A DNA stretch of 64,000 nt from positions 2,624,001 to 2,688,000 of the forward strand of contig OZ244744.1 in the NCBI GenBank assembly GCA_965219455.1, given 5' to 3'. Under the pieces are notes generated by a model. That model saw nothing but the letters and a program-made list of their open reading frames with translations, searched no databases and was not told the origin of the DNA. Below are positions 16,475 through 57,940 of this stretch, one piece after another. This DNA comes from Candidatus Latescibacterota bacterium. GTDB taxonomy: Bacteria; Latescibacterota; UBA2968; GCA-2709665. A program made the position numbers and the translations under genes. Numbering within the stretch: the stretch's first letter is position 1; each line of letters opens with the position of its first letter.

Positions 16475-17371
16475 TTACCTGGGCACCGCTTCAATCTCGA
16501 ACAGCTTGGGCCATCGTTTCCCGGTCACGAACAGGCGCTTCCCCTTTGCATCGTAAGCAATCCCGTTCAACGTGGCATCCGCGGCGAGTCGTTCCCGCCC
16601 CGCCAGCAAGCCAGTCAGGTCGATCCAGCCCACCACCCTGCCGGACTCCGGGTCGATCCTGGCGATCAGGTCCGTTTCCCAGACATTGGCGTAGACTTCG
16701 CCTTCAACGTATTCCAGTTCATTCAGCCGGGTCACCGGCCCCATATCGTCCCGGACCTCAACCCGCCCGACCTCCTCAAACGTTTCGGGATCTTTAAAAT
16801 ACAGCGTCGGCGTCCCATCGCTGACGATCAACCGCCGGCCGTCGTGTGTAATCCCCCACCCCTCGGTGGAATAGGTGAACGACCGCAAGCGTTCGAACCG
16901 TTCCTTATCGTAGACGAATCCGGTCCGCCCCACCCAAGTTAACTGAATGATGTGATTTCCGAATATTGTTATTCCTTCTCCGAAAAACCGGGATTCCAGC
17001 GGATGCATCCGTGTAACCTTGCCTGTTTCCAGTACGATCTTGCGCAACGACGACCGCCCGTACAGCCCCGTTCCCTCGAAAAGAAATCCGCCTTCATACA
17101 CAAGCCCCTGTGTAAATGCGGTGGCGTCGTGCGGATAGGTGCGTATTACGCGGTACGTGTACCACCGCGGCTTCCCTGCGGAGGTCGAGTCCGCCTGTGT
17201 TGAAACCGTACCGTTATTCCGTGCGGACCGGACCTCGCCCACATCCGACGCCGATACACCCACTGCACCCGCCACGCCGAGAACAAACAGCGTAATTCCC
17301 GGCAGACGGCAAAGGCACCGGAAAATTCGGAAAGGCAAATGATCGGTTGTGCTCCGGGACTGTAAGGTCAT
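16475..17371 (-). CDS. Glutaminyl-peptide cyclotransferase
   Basis: YPHDATAFTQGL, EGTGLYGRS, FGEGIT, EGWGIT, LNELEY, LNGIAYD, TGKRWP; start placed at ATG 17371 because the upstream part of the ORF is REP DNA. Confidence 0.92.
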   Translation of the reverse strand: MTLQSRSTTDHLPFRIFRCLCRLPGITLFVLGVAGAVGVSASDVGEVRSARNNGTVSTQADSTSAGKPRWYTYRVIRTYPHDATAFTQGLVYEGGFLFEGTGLYGRSSLRKIVLETGKVTRMHPLESRFFGEGITIFGNHIIQLTWVGRTGFVYDKERFERLRSFTYSTEGWGITHDGRRLIVSDGTPTLYFKDPETFEEVGRVEVRDDMGPVTRLNELEYVEGEVYANVWETDLIARIDPESGRVVGWIDLTGLLAGRERLAADATLNGIAYDAKGKRLFVTGKRWPKLFEIEAVPR

Positions 17372-52126: not shown

Positions 52127-52856
52127 GTGCGCCGTGAAAAGGCGCGGATCTTCAGTGGGTGAAAGTCCCACCCGACAAGGGTTGCTTCAGTCGGTAGCAA
52201 CCGGAGCGGGGACGTAGGTAACGAAATCTCCGAAGCCTCCGGTGTAAAGGGTCGCAAGGCGACTCCGCGAGTATGCAGGCCGTAACGCGCAGTGAACGCT
52301 GAGCAAGCCTCGAAAACTGCAATGCGGGAGCCGACCCGATGGTTAGCCGGGGAAGGCCGCCGCCGTTGGAAAAAAAAAGACAGCAACGCGTGCACCCAAC
52401 GGTCCCGCCGGGGTACTGGCGACGGCATGTATATAAAGGGAGGTCCGACGCAACACGGGAAGCCCCAGCGGTGGTGGTGAGACACCAACCGGAAACCCGC
52501 GAGGGACAGGCCGGGCCGAATGGGGTGGCGGACAGGCTCGTAGTACCGGTGATGCCGGGTAACGCCGGCGGAGGAAAGGGGCCTGACTTCGGACACGCTT
52601 GGGAAGGGAACAACGGATTGGAGAGTGGCGCAAGCCTATTACCTCCAAAGAAAGACCAGGCGATCCGGGAACAAGCTTGGCCTTCAGGTGAAGTTGCCTG
52701 GACATAGGAGGTGGCGTGTGCCTGAAGGCGACGTTCGTCGGAGAGCCGGATGCGGGAAATCCGCATGTCCGGTTCGACGAGCGGGATGTGGAAACGGGGC
52801 ACGGAGAGGCTATTAATAGGCCGCTCCTAAACTACCGCGCCACATCCCGACTCTAC
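52127..52856 (+). mobile_element. ORF-less group II intron (IIB-like)
   Basis: 5' GTGCG; domain V GAGCCGGATGCGGGAAATCCGCATGTCCGGTTC (52743-52775) with AGC triad; domain VI ending CTCTAC; domain III GTAGTACCGGTGATGCCGGGTAACGCCGGCGGAGGAAAGG; no RT ORF. Confidence 0.92.
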
Positions 52857-53275: not shown

Positions 53276-53932
53276 TTGACCGATCAGGAATTTCTGGCCG
53301 CCGCGAAAGCGTTGTCGGTCGATCTGTCGGAAGTGCAGGCCGCGCAGTTTTTTCGCTATGAGGCGCTGCTCAGGTCATGGTCAGAAAGGGTGCGACTGGT
53401 TTCCCGAGGGGACCGGGACAAAATCAGAGAGCACCACTTTATTGACAGTTTGCGGGTGGTGCCCTTTCTGCCCAGGGGGCCCATTTCGCTTTTGGACCTG
53501 GGATCGGGTGCGGGTTTTCCGGGCGTACCGGTCAAGATCGCCCGCCCGGAAGTGAATGTCGTGCTTCTTGAGTCGGCCCGAATGAAGGGTCTTTTCCTGA
53601 ACCACCTGGCGGGGGAACTCGAACTGGACGGGCTGTGCGTTGTAACCGAGCGGGCGGAGGCCGCCCGCGAGCGTGTCGAGCAACGGGGAGGGTACGATAT
53701 TGTAACGGCGCGCGCGGTCGGCTCCCTGCCGATGCTCTGGCGCCTGTCGTCAGGATTGCTAAAACGAGAGGGTGAGTTGTTCGCACTGAAGGGTCCCGGC
53801 GCCGTCCGGGAAGCAGAGGAATTCGGACCGGATGGCCCCGCCGTGTCCATGGAAACCATAGCGCCCGGATCCCGGCACAGGAACACAATTCTTGTCAGGG
53901 TCAGCGCCCGGCGAAATTCCGGGCCGCCCTGA
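53276..53932 (+). CDS. rsmG: 16S rRNA m7G527 methyltransferase
   Basis: HFIDSL, LDLGSGAGFPG, RAE, TARAV, LKG; GGAGG RBS with TTG start. Confidence 0.93.
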   Translation: MTDQEFLAAAKALSVDLSEVQAAQFFRYEALLRSWSERVRLVSRGDRDKIREHHFIDSLRVVPFLPRGPISLLDLGSGAGFPGVPVKIARPEVNVVLLESARMKGLFLNHLAGELELDGLCVVTERAEAARERVEQRGGYDIVTARAVGSLPMLWRLSSGLLKREGELFALKGPGAVREAEEFGPDGPAVSMETIAPGSRHRNTILVRVSARRNSGPP

Positions 53933-54331
53933 TCAAGCGGCGTGGACGAGCTCGATCAGTACGCCACCTGCGCTCTTGGGATGCAGGAAAGCCACCTGCC
54001 GGCCAAGCGCGTCTTTCCGGATTTTCCCGGCGATCGTGAGCCCCTCGTCTTCGAAGGATGAAACGGCCGCTTCGATATCCCTTACACGGATCGCGACGTG
54101 GTGCAGACCCTGGCCCCGTCTCGAAAGGAATCGCGCCAGAGAACTCCGATCGTCGAGGGGTTCGAGGAGTTCGATCGTGGTGAGGCCGGCGCCGGCGAGA
54201 AATACGGCCCGGACACCTTCGGCCTCCACGGTTTCTTCTTCCCGTTTTTTGAACCCGAGCATGGAATAGACGGCCAGGGCCTGGTCAATCCCTTCCACCG
54301 CAATGCCCACATGATCCACGCATCCGTCCAC
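53933..54331 (-). CDS. mce: Methylmalonyl-CoA epimerase
   Basis: DHVGIAV, IELLEP, GLHHVAI, FLHPK, GVLIELV. Confidence 0.92.
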   Translation of the reverse strand: MDGCVDHVGIAVEGIDQALAVYSMLGFKKREEETVEAEGVRAVFLAGAGLTTIELLEPLDDRSSLARFLSRRGQGLHHVAIRVRDIEAAVSSFEDEGLTIAGKIRKDALGRQVAFLHPKSAGGVLIELVHAA

Positions 54332-54333
54332 GT

Positions 54334-56175
54334 CTACCCCCCGGGTCTGTAGGTTCCAAAGACCGCACGCAGCCTGTCCGATATCTCGCCCACCGTTGCG
54401 CCGGCCAACCCCGCCGCCACGACCGCTTCCGTAATCGACCCCGTGCCCAGCGCCCGCTGTGCGACATTGTCCAGCGCGGAATTCGTCTCGTCGGAATCTC
54501 GCCTGTTCCGGGCCCGCGCCAGCCCACCCTTCTGTACGTGTTCGGTTTCCTGTGGGGGCTGGAACGCGGAAACCTGCGGGTCCGGGTCCCCCTGATACCT
54601 GTTCACCCCCACCACCACGGTCTCGCCGGATTCGATCTTCTTCTGCGCATCATATGCGGAGTCTGCGATACAGGCCGCTGTGAAGCCGTTTCCGGCAGCC
54701 TGTATGGCCCCACCCTCCCCGTCGACCGATTTCAGAACGGCGATGGCTTCCTCCTCGAGGGCATCGGTCATTTTCTCAACCGCAAACGATCCGCCCATGG
54801 GATCAACAGTGTCGGGGATGCCGCTTTCATAGGCCAGGATCTGTTGGGTGCGGACGGCCAGTTGCGCGCCGTTATCCGACGGCAGGCCAAGCGCTTCATC
54901 GAAGGCGTTAACGTGCAGGGATTGGGCGCCCCCGAAAACGGCGGCCAGCGCCTGCAGCGTGGTCCGCGCACAGTTGTTCAACGGCTGCTGGGCCGTCAGG
55001 GTCGAGCCTGCGGTCTGGGCGTGAAATCTCAATCGGCGGCAGTGTGGATCTCCGACGCCCAGGCGTTCCGCGACAAGGCGGCTCCAGAGTCGCCTGGCCG
55101 CCCGGAATTTGGCTATTTCCTCCAGGAAATGGTTGTGGACGCCAAAAAAGAAGGAGAATTTCGGAAGGATTCGCTCCAGTTCGAGGCCGGCCTCACTGGC
55201 GGCATCGGCATACGACAGGGCGTGGGCGAGCGTGAAACCAAGCTCCTGGGCGGCGGTTGCGCCCGCTTCTCTCATGTGGTAGCCGCTGACGCTGATGGGA
55301 TTCCACTTTGGCGCCTCCATGATACAATAACCCATCAGATCCACGACCATACGCATCGAGTCGGCAATGGGAAAGATATAGGTTCCACGTGAAACATATT
55401 CCTTGAGAATGTCGTTCTGAACCGTACCGGTGAGTACCGACGTAGGCAGCCCGCGTTTGTTTCCGAGACCTGCATAGAGCGCGAACAGGATGCACGCCGT
55501 CGCATTGATTGTCATGGATGTGCTGATACGGTCAAGCGGAATTCCATCAAAAAGGGCTTCCAGGTCCCCCAGGCCGTCCACCGCCACGCCCACCCTGCCG
55601 ACTTCACCCTCTGCGTTCGGATGGTCCGAGTCGTAGCCCATCTGGGTTGGCAGGTCAAATGCCACGCTCAGCCCGGTCTGACCCCGGGCGAGCAGCTCGC
55701 GAAACCGGGTGTTTGTCTCCGTTGGAGTGGAAAAACCCGCGTACTGGCGGAGGGTCCAGAGGCGTCCGCGATACATCGAGGGGTAGGCGCCGCGGGTGAA
55801 GGGCGGTTCGCCCGCGCGGCCGATCCGTTCCGGATGGATACCTCCCTGCTTAACCCCGGCAGGTTGGTGGTCCTTGCCGGCGATGCCGTCCGCCGTCCGC
55901 CGGCTCTCGGCCGGACCGGCAAGCAACCCCGCCATCCGGTCAAAAAGGCGTCTGGCCTCTTTTGTGCGGGCGCGCTGCCTGTATGCATGTATCAGAAGGG
56001 CCCTGGGGTCCAGTTCAAGGACGGCCGCAAGGTCCAGGCAACGCTCATCCGAAGGAATTCGCTTTCCCTTCTCGATCTGTCCAATATAGGTGCCCCAGAC
56101 ACCGATCTTTTCGCCCAGACCCTGCTGGCTGAACCTGCCCCGGCGCGCCCTCTCGATCATGTCGCCTAAATTCAT
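54334..56175 (-). CDS. Methylmalonyl-CoA mutase substrate-binding subunit with N-terminal XRE HTH fusion
   Basis: PFTRG, WTLRQYAGF, GLSVAFDLPTQMGYDSD, TVQNDILKEY, SGYHMREAG, GGAQSLH; N-terminal SQQGLGEKIGVWGTYIGQIEKGKRIPS; GGAGG RBS before ATG 56175; no B12-binding domain. Confidence 0.9.
   Translation of the reverse strand: MNLGDMIERARRGRFSQQGLGEKIGVWGTYIGQIEKGKRIPSDERCLDLAAVLELDPRALLIHAYRQRARTKEARRLFDRMAGLLAGPAESRRTADGIAGKDHQPAGVKQGGIHPERIGRAGEPPFTRGAYPSMYRGRLWTLRQYAGFSTPTETNTRFRELLARGQTGLSVAFDLPTQMGYDSDHPNAEGEVGRVGVAVDGLGDLEALFDGIPLDRISTSMTINATACILFALYAGLGNKRGLPTSVLTGTVQNDILKEYVSRGTYIFPIADSMRMVVDLMGYCIMEAPKWNPISVSGYHMREAGATAAQELGFTLAHALSYADAASEAGLELERILPKFSFFFGVHNHFLEEIAKFRAARRLWSRLVAERLGVGDPHCRRLRFHAQTAGSTLTAQQPLNNCARTTLQALAAVFGGAQSLHVNAFDEALGLPSDNGAQLAVRTQQILAYESGIPDTVDPMGGSFAVEKMTDALEEEAIAVLKSVDGEGGAIQAAGNGFTAACIADSAYDAQKKIESGETVVVGVNRYQGDPDPQVSAFQPPQETEHVQKGGLARARNRRDSDETNSALDNVAQRALGTGSITEAVVAAGLAGATVGEISDRLRAVFGTYRPGG
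55381..55396. promoter_or_regulatory. parS-like site inside the mutase CDS
   Basis: GGTTCCACGTGAAACA, 15/16 identical to the site at 53204. Confidence 0.7.
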
Positions 56176-56271
56176 CTGCGAAACCTCCGTCGCGGGAAAT
56201 GCGGGACTGAGAGTACGATTGCAAAACCGCGACTCAATCCACACACACTCGCATGTGTGGATTACGGACAT

Positions 56272-56300
56272 AATTTATTGTTAATACAGGACGTTGTGAA
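56272..56300 (-). promoter_or_regulatory. Candidate sigma70 promoter of the HTH-mutase operon
   Basis: TTCACA-N17-TAAATT in an AT-rich gap. Confidence 0.5.
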
Positions 56301-56428
56301 ATTCTATACCGTTTCTAAATGTGGGAGCGATCGGATCTCGATAACTGCAGGGACGACGAGATCTGACGTGATTCCAGAGGTTTTCGGGTCCGCCGTAAGG
56401 ATCCCGGTTTCCGACCTCGAATCCGTCG

Positions 56429-57286
56429 TCAGCCGGAGACGACCGGATTTTCAAGCCTGCCGATCCCGTCGACTTCACAGACGACGGTGTCCCCCGCTTG
56501 CAGCCAGAGTTGCGGCGCCCTGGCCATGCCGACTCCCGATGGCGTTCCCGTGAAAATCAGGTCGCCGGGTTGGAGGGTGACAACGCGGGACAGGTAGGCG
56601 ATGAGCTGGTCGATCTTGAAAATCAGCTGTTTCGTATTCGAGTCCTGTACGGTTTCGCCGTTCAGGATACAACGTATACCCAGATTGTGCGGATCGTCGA
56701 CCTCGTCGGGCGTGACAATATCCGGTCCCAGCGGAGCGAACGTGTCGAAGGTCTTGCCCAGCAGCCATTGTCCGCCGGGTTTTTCGAGCTGGAAGTCCCG
56801 CGCGCTCACGTCGTGGCCCACGGTATAGCCCGCGACATGGTCCATCGCGTCGGATTCAGATATATCTTTTCCTGCCGTCCCGATGACAACCACCAGTTCG
56901 ACCTCATAGTCGATAGACCGTGTCACCGACGGCAGGCGGATCGCATCGCCGGGACCGATAATCGTTGAAGAGAACTTGGAAAAGACCACCGGTTCGGGCG
57001 GAATGGGCATGTTGCTTTCGGCCGCGTGGTCTGCGTAGTTGAGGCCGATGCAGAGGATCTTTTCCGGATTCTGGATGGGCGCCGCGACACGGACGACATT
57101 GACGTCGATGCCTTCGCCCCGCTCTGCCGCTACTCGCGCCGCAGCCAGCGCAGCCGGCCCCGCCTTCAGCAGGCTTTCGAGATCCCGGGGAATGTCGGGA
57201 TCGACGCGGCTCACGTCCACGATCGTATCTCCCGACCGGACGCCCACGCGTCGCGTTCCCTGGTGGTCAAAAGTGAGCAATCGCAT
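56429..57286 (-). CDS. Fumarylacetoacetate hydrolase-family protein
   Basis: KILCIGLNYADH, DYEVEL, DVSARD, GKTFDTF, TGTPSGVG; start ATG 57286. Confidence 0.93.
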   Translation of the reverse strand: MRLLTFDHQGTRRVGVRSGDTIVDVSRVDPDIPRDLESLLKAGPAALAAARVAAERGEGIDVNVVRVAAPIQNPEKILCIGLNYADHAAESNMPIPPEPVVFSKFSSTIIGPGDAIRLPSVTRSIDYEVELVVVIGTAGKDISESDAMDHVAGYTVGHDVSARDFQLEKPGGQWLLGKTFDTFAPLGPDIVTPDEVDDPHNLGIRCILNGETVQDSNTKQLIFKIDQLIAYLSRVVTLQPGDLIFTGTPSGVGMARAPQLWLQAGDTVVCEVDGIGRLENPVVSG

Positions 57287-57341
57287 AAGAAAGGCGACCT
57301 TTCCTTTTAGGGATGACGTTGTCCTGCCGAACAGGGCGCGA

Positions 57342-57370
57342 AGAATAACATGCCGGCCGTCTTCTGTCAA
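57342..57370 (-). promoter_or_regulatory. sigma70 promoter of the FAH-family gene
   Basis: TTGACA-N17-TATTCT. Confidence 0.65.
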
Positions 57371-57940
57371 GGGATAAGGACGACTAAACGGGCGGCGGCA
57401 TACCCCCGAACGGGAGCAACCCGTCCGGGGGTATGCGGTATCGGAACACGAGGTATTCCACATTGCTGAATAACTGTACAAAGTCAGATGTTTATTATTA
57501 AATATCTGTTTTTATTCATTTAATGAAGCCATCTTATAAGTTTCCCCCAAGTTATAATACCAGCCTGTGGAAAAAACGTGGATAAATCCGGCGGCTCCAC
57601 CAACCCCCCGCAGCCGACGACGCAATCCTGTGTCCCGCGAATCCGATGCCCGCGACAACCATGACCGGATCGCGCACGAAACCACGGCGGTTGCGATCGT
57701 TTCGCGTGAGGCGCTCCGGGGCGGTGACGAAGGAAGATCAACCTGGAAAAACGACCGATTCCGGGGGCCTCCGGTCAGTGCCCACCCCCTGTCGACCCGC
57801 GGAAATCGGTCAAGCGGCGCCGCGTCCGGGACCGAAGATTTCCCTTGCTACCCCCCTGCGATTATTCTATATTTTGGAAAAAATTGCGGCAGTGTAGTGT
57901 CCGGAAATGCGATATCCCGGCCAATGGGGAATGCTGGCTC

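Follow-up and report, generated by a model that had tools for sequence, protein, structure and literature searches.

A gene of Candidatus Latescibacterota raises the question of whether a subunit of a B12-dependent acyl-CoA mutase can also act as a transcription factor. The gene lies at positions 54,334 to 56,175, on the reverse strand, of the window, by which we mean the whole stretch of 64,000 nucleotides of contig OZ244744.1 that was analyzed. It encodes in one chain a helix-turn-helix (HTH) domain of the XRE type, a linker and the large subunit of a methylmalonyl-CoA mutase (MCM). We found that this fusion is genuine and that it is fixed across one genus of Candidatus Latescibacterota. We think that the protein is probably bifunctional. 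That is, it would serve both as the sole mutase large subunit and as an autorepressor that binds conserved palindromes, with the enzyme in place of the regulator's C-terminal domain.

Structure and enzyme type of the fused protein

The translation of the gene is a single stop-free frame of 613 amino acids. The open frame extends 5' to another ATG at 56271, which gives a version of 645 amino acids. The ATG at 56173-56175 is the supported start of the gene, because a GGAGG block conserved within the genus lies 8 nt upstream and because the Met encoded there is the common first residue of 13 fused and 13 stand-alone homologues.

In the N-terminal part, Pfam HTH_3 (PF01381) matched residues 15-58 (E = 9.1e-8; 32.5 bits against a cut-off of 23). 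AlphaFold2, run with a 52-row alignment, placed helices at residues 3-11, 17-24, 28-35, 43-53, 57-68 and 72-85. The PF01381 match above the gathering score and the five-helix fold together assign this domain to the XRE/Cro-C1 family. The confidence of the model (pLDDT) was 85-91 over residues 1-70 and below 50 over residues 87-118, and the barrel was predicted with confidence. Pfam MM_CoA_mutase (PF01642) matched residues 120-607 (E = 1.6e-190) with profile positions 27-512 of 512. Since this match begins at position 27 of the profile, the usual N-terminal part of the mutase is absent from the fusion.

The matches to PF01642 and to NCBIfam TIGR00641 (637.5 bits against a cut-off of 303.8) run across the entire barrel, as in the large subunit of a split-type acyl-CoA mutase. 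The score with the single-chain MCM equivalog NF006944 was 563.9 bits, below the cut-off of 876 as expected for a barrel-only subunit, and we therefore filed the protein as a split-type large subunit and not as the single-chain equivalog. An IcmF-type fused mutase was considered and rejected, because NF045497 gave 251 bits against a cut-off of 1500 and the protein contains neither PF02310 nor PF03308.

From the literature on methylmalonyl-, isobutyryl- and 2-hydroxyisobutyryl-CoA mutases, we take the residues at positions 145, 172, 263 and 299-300 to reflect the type of substrate. Tyr145 (in RQYAGF), Ala172, Arg263 (in SRGTY) and Tyr299-His300 (in SGYH) of the fused protein are identical to the corresponding residues of human MCM (8gju_J). 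HcmA, the 2-hydroxyisobutyryl-CoA mutase (4r3u_A), differs at those specificity positions, with Ile, Gln and, opposite Ala172, Asp. The barrel aligned end to end with HcmA (E = 4e-145; the top match by score among solved structures), and likewise with MCM (1req, 2xij), both the human enzyme (E = 1e-132) and that of Propionibacterium. An identity with HcmA was rejected because Tyr145 and Ala172 stand where HcmA has Ile and Asp. The substrate-type residues of the fused protein fit those of an MCM.

The genome to which the window belongs (G000) is one contig of 5.84 Mb with a single PF01642 match, namely the fusion, which is the organism's only MCM large subunit. The product of the adjoining gene on the downstream side scored 128.6 bits with TIGR03081, the equivalog of methylmalonyl-CoA epimerase, which is above the cut-off (114.95). 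The genes for a B12-binding small subunit (TIGR00640, 160.7 bits against a cut-off of 57.45) and for MeaB (PF03308, E = 4.7e-78) stand together at G000:C1:3553060-3554384, about 875 kb from the fused gene. The fused subunit should pair with this separately encoded small subunit and with MeaB.

A first-pass annotation of the gene, made from the letters of the sequence, had described one unbroken frame with a ribosome-binding site, an XRE HTH with a helical extension and a linker in place of the N-terminal arm of the mutase, an intact barrel of the methylmalonyl type with the Tyr of QYAGF, and an epimerase gene 2 nt past the stop. The translation and the GGAGG block, the Pfam and AlphaFold2 results, the residues aligned with human MCM and the position of the epimerase start codon agree with this description.

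Distribution of the fusion

We surveyed 168 species genomes of the phylum, of which 15 belong to the genus of the window (g1) and 153 do not. Frames of fused length (609-672 amino acids) were present in all 15 genomes of the genus and in none of the 153 others, and each of the 15 had exactly one PF01642 match. Among database proteins, all 11 that matched residues 1-125 carried both PF01381 and PF01642 and were 601-692 amino acids long. When the best 120 relatives of the barrel were scanned, PF01381 was found in only 11, which were 85-98% identical to the fusion, and the next relatives were unfused and at most 69% identical. Three of the best 80 genome loci were fused, all of them from Candidatus Latescibacterota, and seven loci of this set with long upstream open frames had PF01642 only. 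Approached from the side of the HTH, 10 of the long proteins (496-683 amino acids) among the 150 best HTH representatives were scanned and proved to be multi-HTH, peptidase S24 or AAA proteins, with no mutase among them. Full-text literature searches gave no account of a fusion between an HTH and an acyl-CoA mutase. The fusion appears to be confined to one genus, and it is evolutionarily young. The first-pass annotation knew of no such acyl-CoA mutase fusion, and the literature and sequence searches outside the genus likewise found none.

It might be supposed that the fusion is an artefact of mis-assembly or of a frameshift, or that an internal start gives an ordinary unfused mutase as a second product. 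The first-pass annotation had named read support across about 55800-55960 as a check, and the absence of the fusion from relatives, without support by reads, as a refutation. The frame proved continuous in the assemblies of all 15 species, and a contig of 3000 nt, which belongs to another study's run, spans 54300-56203 with four differences and no gaps. The indels of the linker were all multiples of three, without stops. On the other side, near-identical contigs from two sponge metatranscriptome runs were found solely at 54300-54659, 54776-54982 and 56306-56450, so that the HTH and the junction at 55800-55960 had no cover among them; these contigs come from RNA libraries possibly containing DNA and give no basis for a claim about transcription or a transcript start. 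As for an internal start, the stretch from residue 82 to the PFTRG motif contains no conserved Met. The preceding residue, Met81, is conserved in the stand-alone homologues too and has no Shine-Dalgarno sequence ahead of it, and the barrel is without the approximately 58 N-terminal residues that the unfused protein of the sister genus possesses. We consider an artefact or a pair of separate products very improbable.

Selection on the DNA-binding domain

Homologues of residues 1 to about 92 of the fusion, at 45-66% identity, occur as small proteins in another 93 genomes of the phylum; the stand-alone XRE gene of the other genera encodes 165-167 amino acids. In order to clarify whether the HTH is still under constraint in the fusion, the ratio of nonsynonymous to synonymous substitution rates (dN/dS) was calculated for 78 pairs of 13 fused genes. 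The gene of locus L019, which runs off the locus, and that of L021, which has a deletion, were left out. The dN/dS value was 0.135 over residues 1-66 and 0.127 over the mutase, and it reached 0.49 in the linker (residues 93-125). That is, the HTH is under purifying selection like that on the enzyme. Every linker indel among the 13 genes was in frame, and this, together with the selection on the HTH, argues against the idea that the two parts are translated separately.

The invariant residues of the HTH subfamily (R11, S16, Q17, T29, Q33, E35 and P41) are all present in the fusion, and the recognition region GVWGTYIGQIE is unchanged. A closer homologue of this HTH was not found in G000, where the next matches had E values of about 1e-4 and 32-41% identity, and the fusion is apparently the only carrier of the subfamily in the genome. 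The selection, the kept invariants and the cognate-looking DNA site described below suggest that the HTH is still in use.

A palindrome upstream of the fused gene

The inverted repeat that precedes the fused gene (candidate operator in Table 1) is the sole CACACA-N2-12-TGTGTG site in the 5.84-Mb genome. A palindrome of the form ACACAC-N-GTGTGT was found in 27 of the 30 loci that carry this HTH gene, fused or not. It was present in 12 of the 15 fused loci and in 15 of the 15 stand-alone loci (twice in L028), against 0.013 expected per locus, and it was absent from both loci of the sister genus g4 that lost the HTH gene. Five of five further near-complete genomes (96-99% by marker genes) had one of just 1-4 sites at the HTH locus. 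Of 10 loci from distant families, four had a similar palindrome 50-150 bp ahead of the HTH gene. In the genomes lacking the HTH, the number of sites was 0 (G040, G102), 1 (G070) and 2 (G041), and none had an AAG/CTT-type core; this is in line with an operator, although four genomes are too few to carry weight.

The arms of the palindrome were invariant in every copy seen and showed no co-variation, so that recognition by a protein fits better than an RNA hairpin. Since no closer homologue of the HTH was found in the genome, the fusion is the obvious candidate for the binder of the palindromes. A role of the palindrome as a terminator was considered and rejected, because no terminator-like site was found in 56100-56500 and because the palindrome sits in a divergent intergenic region in other genera. 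A relaxed match at 17098 lies within a coding frame and was taken as chance.

The palindrome is near the start codon of the fused gene in just 6 of the 12 species of the genus that bear it. In the other six (L009-L012, L015 and L021) it stays about 170 bp past the stop of the FAA-hydrolase gene.

The spacers between the palindrome and the fused gene in these six loci are non-coding and contain short TCTACCGTCT-like repeats. No convincing open reading frame was seen in the spacer of L009, and the spacer of L012 has a single short repeat.

In the genus (15 genomes, L147-L161), all genomes but one have a second ACACAC/GTGTGT palindrome some 90-100 bp ahead of a DUF34/NIF3 gene, where 0.025 is expected per 320 bp. 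In G000 it is located at C1:1583644-1583663, outside the window. The DUF34/NIF3 gene follows an EamA-like transporter gene and, among the 22 genomes of the family, was found only in the genus of the window. We know of no tie of DUF34/NIF3 to propionate metabolism. No palindrome site was found near the small-subunit and MeaB genes in G000.

A third palindrome of the same type was seen at orthologous places in two genomes, at L134:2044 (G052) and L135:2059 (G053). It lies between a transglycosylase-like gene and a WD40-repeat gene, and an exact counterpart was not found in G000.

Origin of the fusion

In genera g5 and g11 the stand-alone XRE gene, there of 166-167 codons' worth of protein (166-167 amino acids), lies between rsmG and the FAA-hydrolase gene, that is, in the same slot as the fusion of the window. 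The AlphaFold2 model of the stand-alone homologue (pLDDT 91) has the same six N-terminal helices as the fusion and, in addition, six more confident helices (residues 88-163), which form a C-terminal domain missing from the fusion. This C-terminal domain gave no tblastn match in the G000 genome at E values up to 1, and a Foldseek search of the stand-alone homologue against the PDB gave nothing at E 0.001 or better. As modelled, the C-terminal domain of the ancestral regulator has no recognised fold type.

The sister genus g4 has an unfused mutase of 558 amino acids, with the epimerase, in the same slot between rsmG and the FAA-hydrolase gene. The g4 slot contains no HTH gene, and just a diverged HTH copy is found elsewhere on the contig. 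In the unfused g4 mutase, about 58 residues precede the point where the homology with the fusion starts.

A mutase is present in 28 of the 168 genomes of the phylum. In a quick tree of 47 rows (SH-aLRT supports, midpoint root), a clade with a support of 100 united the mutases of g1 and g4 with eight unfused database proteins and excluded the mutases that other families of the phylum have.

Because of the synteny seen in g5, g11 and g4, we infer as the simplest history the insertion of a cassette followed by a deletion. A mutase-epimerase cassette would have arrived in the slot that rsmG and the FAA-hydrolase gene border, directly downstream of a conserved and autoregulated stand-alone XRE gene. 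A deletion in g1 would then have created a continuous frame from the regulator module (residues 1 to about 92) into the mutase barrel, taking out the C-terminal helical domain of the regulator and the approximately 58 N-terminal residues of the mutase.

In other genera, a divergent coiled-coil gene faces the stand-alone regulator, and the stretch upstream of this gene (L022:2078-2242, L029 and relatives) is unusually conserved between genera; several tblastn rows showed identity at 17 of 17 translated residues. In g4 the body of this gene is lost and a remnant of 26 codons is kept (L050:2373-2450). The stretch may not be coding sequence but a non-coding element that has been conserved.

Proposed mode of regulation

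We think that the protein could act as follows. Two HTH modules would be tethered by flexible linkers of about 30 residues to a dimeric mutase core, and the core would take the place of the C-terminal domain that the regulator has lost. The HTH modules would bind ACACAC-N-GTGTGT just downstream of the promoter-like site and repress the mutase-epimerase operon. Since this is the fusion's own operon, the level of the enzyme would be under autogenous control. The palindrome upstream of DUF34/NIF3 would be bound by the fusion in the same manner. Split-type acyl-CoA mutases are alpha2beta2, and it is for this reason that we place the dimerisation in the mutase core. A complex prediction for two copies of residues 1-95 (43-row alignment) gave a score of 0.33, with the mark at 0.42, and speaks neither for nor against a dimer of these modules.

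Several points weigh against this mechanism. The dimerisation through the core is taken from general knowledge of split-type mutases. The promoter-like site is a bare consensus match, and this consensus may not be the promoter type of the phylum. The distance from the upstream palindrome to the fused gene is about 570-1090 bp in six of the 15 species of the genus, and no palindrome was found in the interval from the FAA-hydrolase gene to the fused gene in L013 and L014. The locus of L018, with 410 bp of upstream sequence, is too short to show whether it has one. The fused gene of G054 (L021) has lost 7 nt in codons 10-13 as compared with its closest species G055, which shifts the canonical ATG out of frame. 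The frame is restored by an ATG farther upstream that overlaps the Shine-Dalgarno sequence, and helix 1 would then be replaced, unless the deletion is an assembly error. The binder of the palindrome could be another protein. Moreover, species of one genus are non-independent samples.

Some of these points would fit with the idea that the fusion is a passenger, that is, that the HTH does not bind DNA and is a harmless or structural appendage in place of the lost arm, while the palindromes are leftovers or serve some other factor as binding sites. The deletion in G054, the two species with no palindrome before the fused gene and the six in which it is 0.6-1.1 kb off can be read in this way. So can the loss from g1 of the divergent coiled-coil gene that elsewhere shares the intergenic region of the regulator. 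Against this idea, the dN/dS value of the HTH equals that of the enzyme, all subfamily invariants are kept, with the recognition helix included, the palindrome upstream of DUF34/NIF3 is kept in 14 of 15 species, and no closer homologue of this HTH was found in the genome. Taken together, we regard a passenger fusion as quite unlikely.

A further question is whether the enzyme part also senses a signal. One polypeptide carries both an enzyme and a DNA-binding domain, as in a trigger enzyme. In a true trigger enzyme, occupancy by methylmalonyl-CoA or succinyl-CoA, docking of the small subunit loaded with adenosylcobalamin, or MeaB would switch DNA binding, and the propionate or B12 status would directly control transcription. 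All the support for DNA binding counts for this possibility as well. In addition, the HTH is attached at the site of the former N-terminal arm, which in the structures of other mutases is part of the subunit contacts, and the domain that the enzyme has replaced is the usual place of signal input in two-domain XRE proteins. On the other hand, a disordered tether of about 30 residues, variable in length and with a dN/dS value of 0.49, is a poor transmitter of conformational change, and these properties of the linker argue for a weak coupling between the barrel and the HTH. Furthermore, chance adjacency already explains the fusion, and the second target, DUF34/NIF3, is without a known link to propionate. 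A ligand-switched trigger enzyme therefore seems doubtful to us.

The first-pass annotation had proposed transcriptional control by the enzyme itself, responsive to acyl-CoA or to the B12 subunit. The regulatory role in this proposal is supported by the selection on the HTH, the invariants and the palindrome. The proposed response is not so supported; a disordered and fast-evolving linker and an origin by accidental adjacency fit simple autogenous repression better than control by a ligand.

It is unlikely, we think, that the fusion will turn out to be a transcription factor switched by a ligand, which would be a first for a B12-dependent acyl-CoA mutase. If it were, closure of the barrel, or docking of the small subunit or MeaB at the vacated site of the arm, would alter the presentation of the tethered HTHs, and the propionate flux or the availability of B12 would set the transcription of the mutase-epimerase operon and of DUF34/NIF3. 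It would also be a dated natural case in which the sensor or dimerisation domain of a regulator was exchanged for a whole enzyme.

Other features of the window and of the phylum

The positions of the fused gene, its parts and the features around it are shown in Table 1.

Table 1. Positions in the window of the fused gene, its predicted parts and its neighbours.
Feature	Position	Strand	Remarks
Fused gene	54334..56175	-	XRE HTH, linker and MCM large (barrel) subunit; 613 aa plus TAG
DNA-binding module (residues 1-85)	55921..56175	-	Predicted five-helix XRE HTH and sixth helix (72-85)
Linker (residues 87-118)	55822..55917	-	Predicted disordered; sequence variable; indels all in frame
Acyl-CoA mutase substrate barrel (residues 120-607)	54355..55818	-	Methylmalonyl type; without N-terminal arm
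Shine-Dalgarno sequence GGAGG	56184-56188	-	8 nt before ATG; block conserved within genus
Candidate operator	56236..56263	.	Inverted repeat AATCCACACA-N8-TGTGTGGATT; 60 nt upstream of ATG
Promoter-like site	56272..56300	-	TTCACA-17 nt-TAAATT; ends 9 nt before palindrome; 1 found against 0.2 expected in shuffles
Methylmalonyl-CoA epimerase gene	53933..54331	-	GTG start 2 nt past fusion TAG; same operon by position
FAA-hydrolase-family gene	56429..57481	-	Conserved upstream neighbour; defines syntenic slot
rsmG (GidB)	53276..53932	+	Conserved neighbour on opposite side of slot

Between mnmE and rsmG, on the forward strand, Rfam matches to group II intron domains were found at 52153-52290 and 52741-52856 (RF02003, 106.6 bits; RF00029, 47.6 bits). 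They are about 700 nt apart, with no plausible long open reading frame between them. These intergenic matches look like a group II intron without an open reading frame.

In four genomes from other genera of the family or class (G040, G041, G042 and G039), the mutase matches lie within open frames of 1085-1128 amino acids. They may encode fused mutases that resemble IcmF, which would make them a separate lineage of mutases within the phylum. Elsewhere in the genome of the window, at L002 (G000:C1:1343969-1347301), a protein of 256 amino acids with a B12-binding domain (a computed PF02310 match) stands beside one of 340 amino acids. The latter, from its translation read by eye, resembles methyltransferases of the uroporphyrinogen-decarboxylase fold, which suggests corrinoid-dependent methyl transfer.

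One database record labels the fused protein merely as "methylmalonyl-CoA mutase family protein". With a name that mentions the mutase only, the fused protein is an annotation trap.

Comparison with known systems

PutA, BirA and NadR are trigger enzymes with a fused DNA-binding domain. Like them, the present protein joins an enzyme and an N-terminal DNA-binding domain in one chain and has a candidate operator before its own operon. It differs from them in that the enzyme is a B12-dependent acyl-CoA mutase barrel, the DNA-binding domain is an XRE/Cro-C1 HTH and the cofactor is carried on a separate subunit. Moreover, the fusion is young and apparently limited to one genus, and control by a ligand is putative.

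On the side of the regulator, the five-helix HTH of the stand-alone homologue superposes on that of P22 c2 (root-mean-square deviation 1.1 A over 61 columns) and on that of SinR. Chains of SinR and of Stl, the SaPI repressor, were among the top whole-length Foldseek rows of the stand-alone homologue, all with E > 0.001. The stand-alone ancestor would share with the two-domain XRE repressors SinR, DdrO and Stl the layout of an HTH and a helical C-terminal domain. In the fusion, by contrast, the C-terminal domain is replaced by an entire enzyme subunit that is covalently joined. Stl is an XRE-type repressor that is controlled by binding an enzyme, dUTPase.

On the side of the enzyme, the barrel is like those of HcmAB (4r3u) and MCM (1req, 2xij) from end to end, and a small subunit, MeaB and an epimerase are present here too. 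The differences are that the N-terminal arm has been exchanged for the HTH and the linker, and that the specificity residues are like those of MCM and not like those of HcmA. The acyl-CoA mutase family has a further natural fusion in IcmF. IcmF joins a B12 domain, a GTPase (the G-protein chaperone) and the barrel, whereas the fused protein described here has neither of these extra domains.

CarH and LitR also couple coenzyme B12 chemistry with an HTH transcription factor. In CarH, a MerR HTH is attached to a B12-binding domain and light is sensed; in the present protein it is the substrate barrel that bears the HTH, one of the XRE type, and a separate protein carries the B12 domain. If the fusion were responsive to a ligand, the B12-dependent acyl-CoA mutases would join the trigger enzymes.

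Enzymes that double as transcription factors are rare and mostly old, and their origin is usually obscure. In the present case all stages survive in relatives: the autoregulated regulator as a protein of its own, an unfused mutase encoded in the same slot, and the fusion. The cognate palindrome is still recognisable, so that the role of the enzyme part, whether it gives dimerisation only or a metabolic signal, is directly testable. Among the fusions of enzymes with regulators, the present one brings a new enzyme family and an origin that can be traced.

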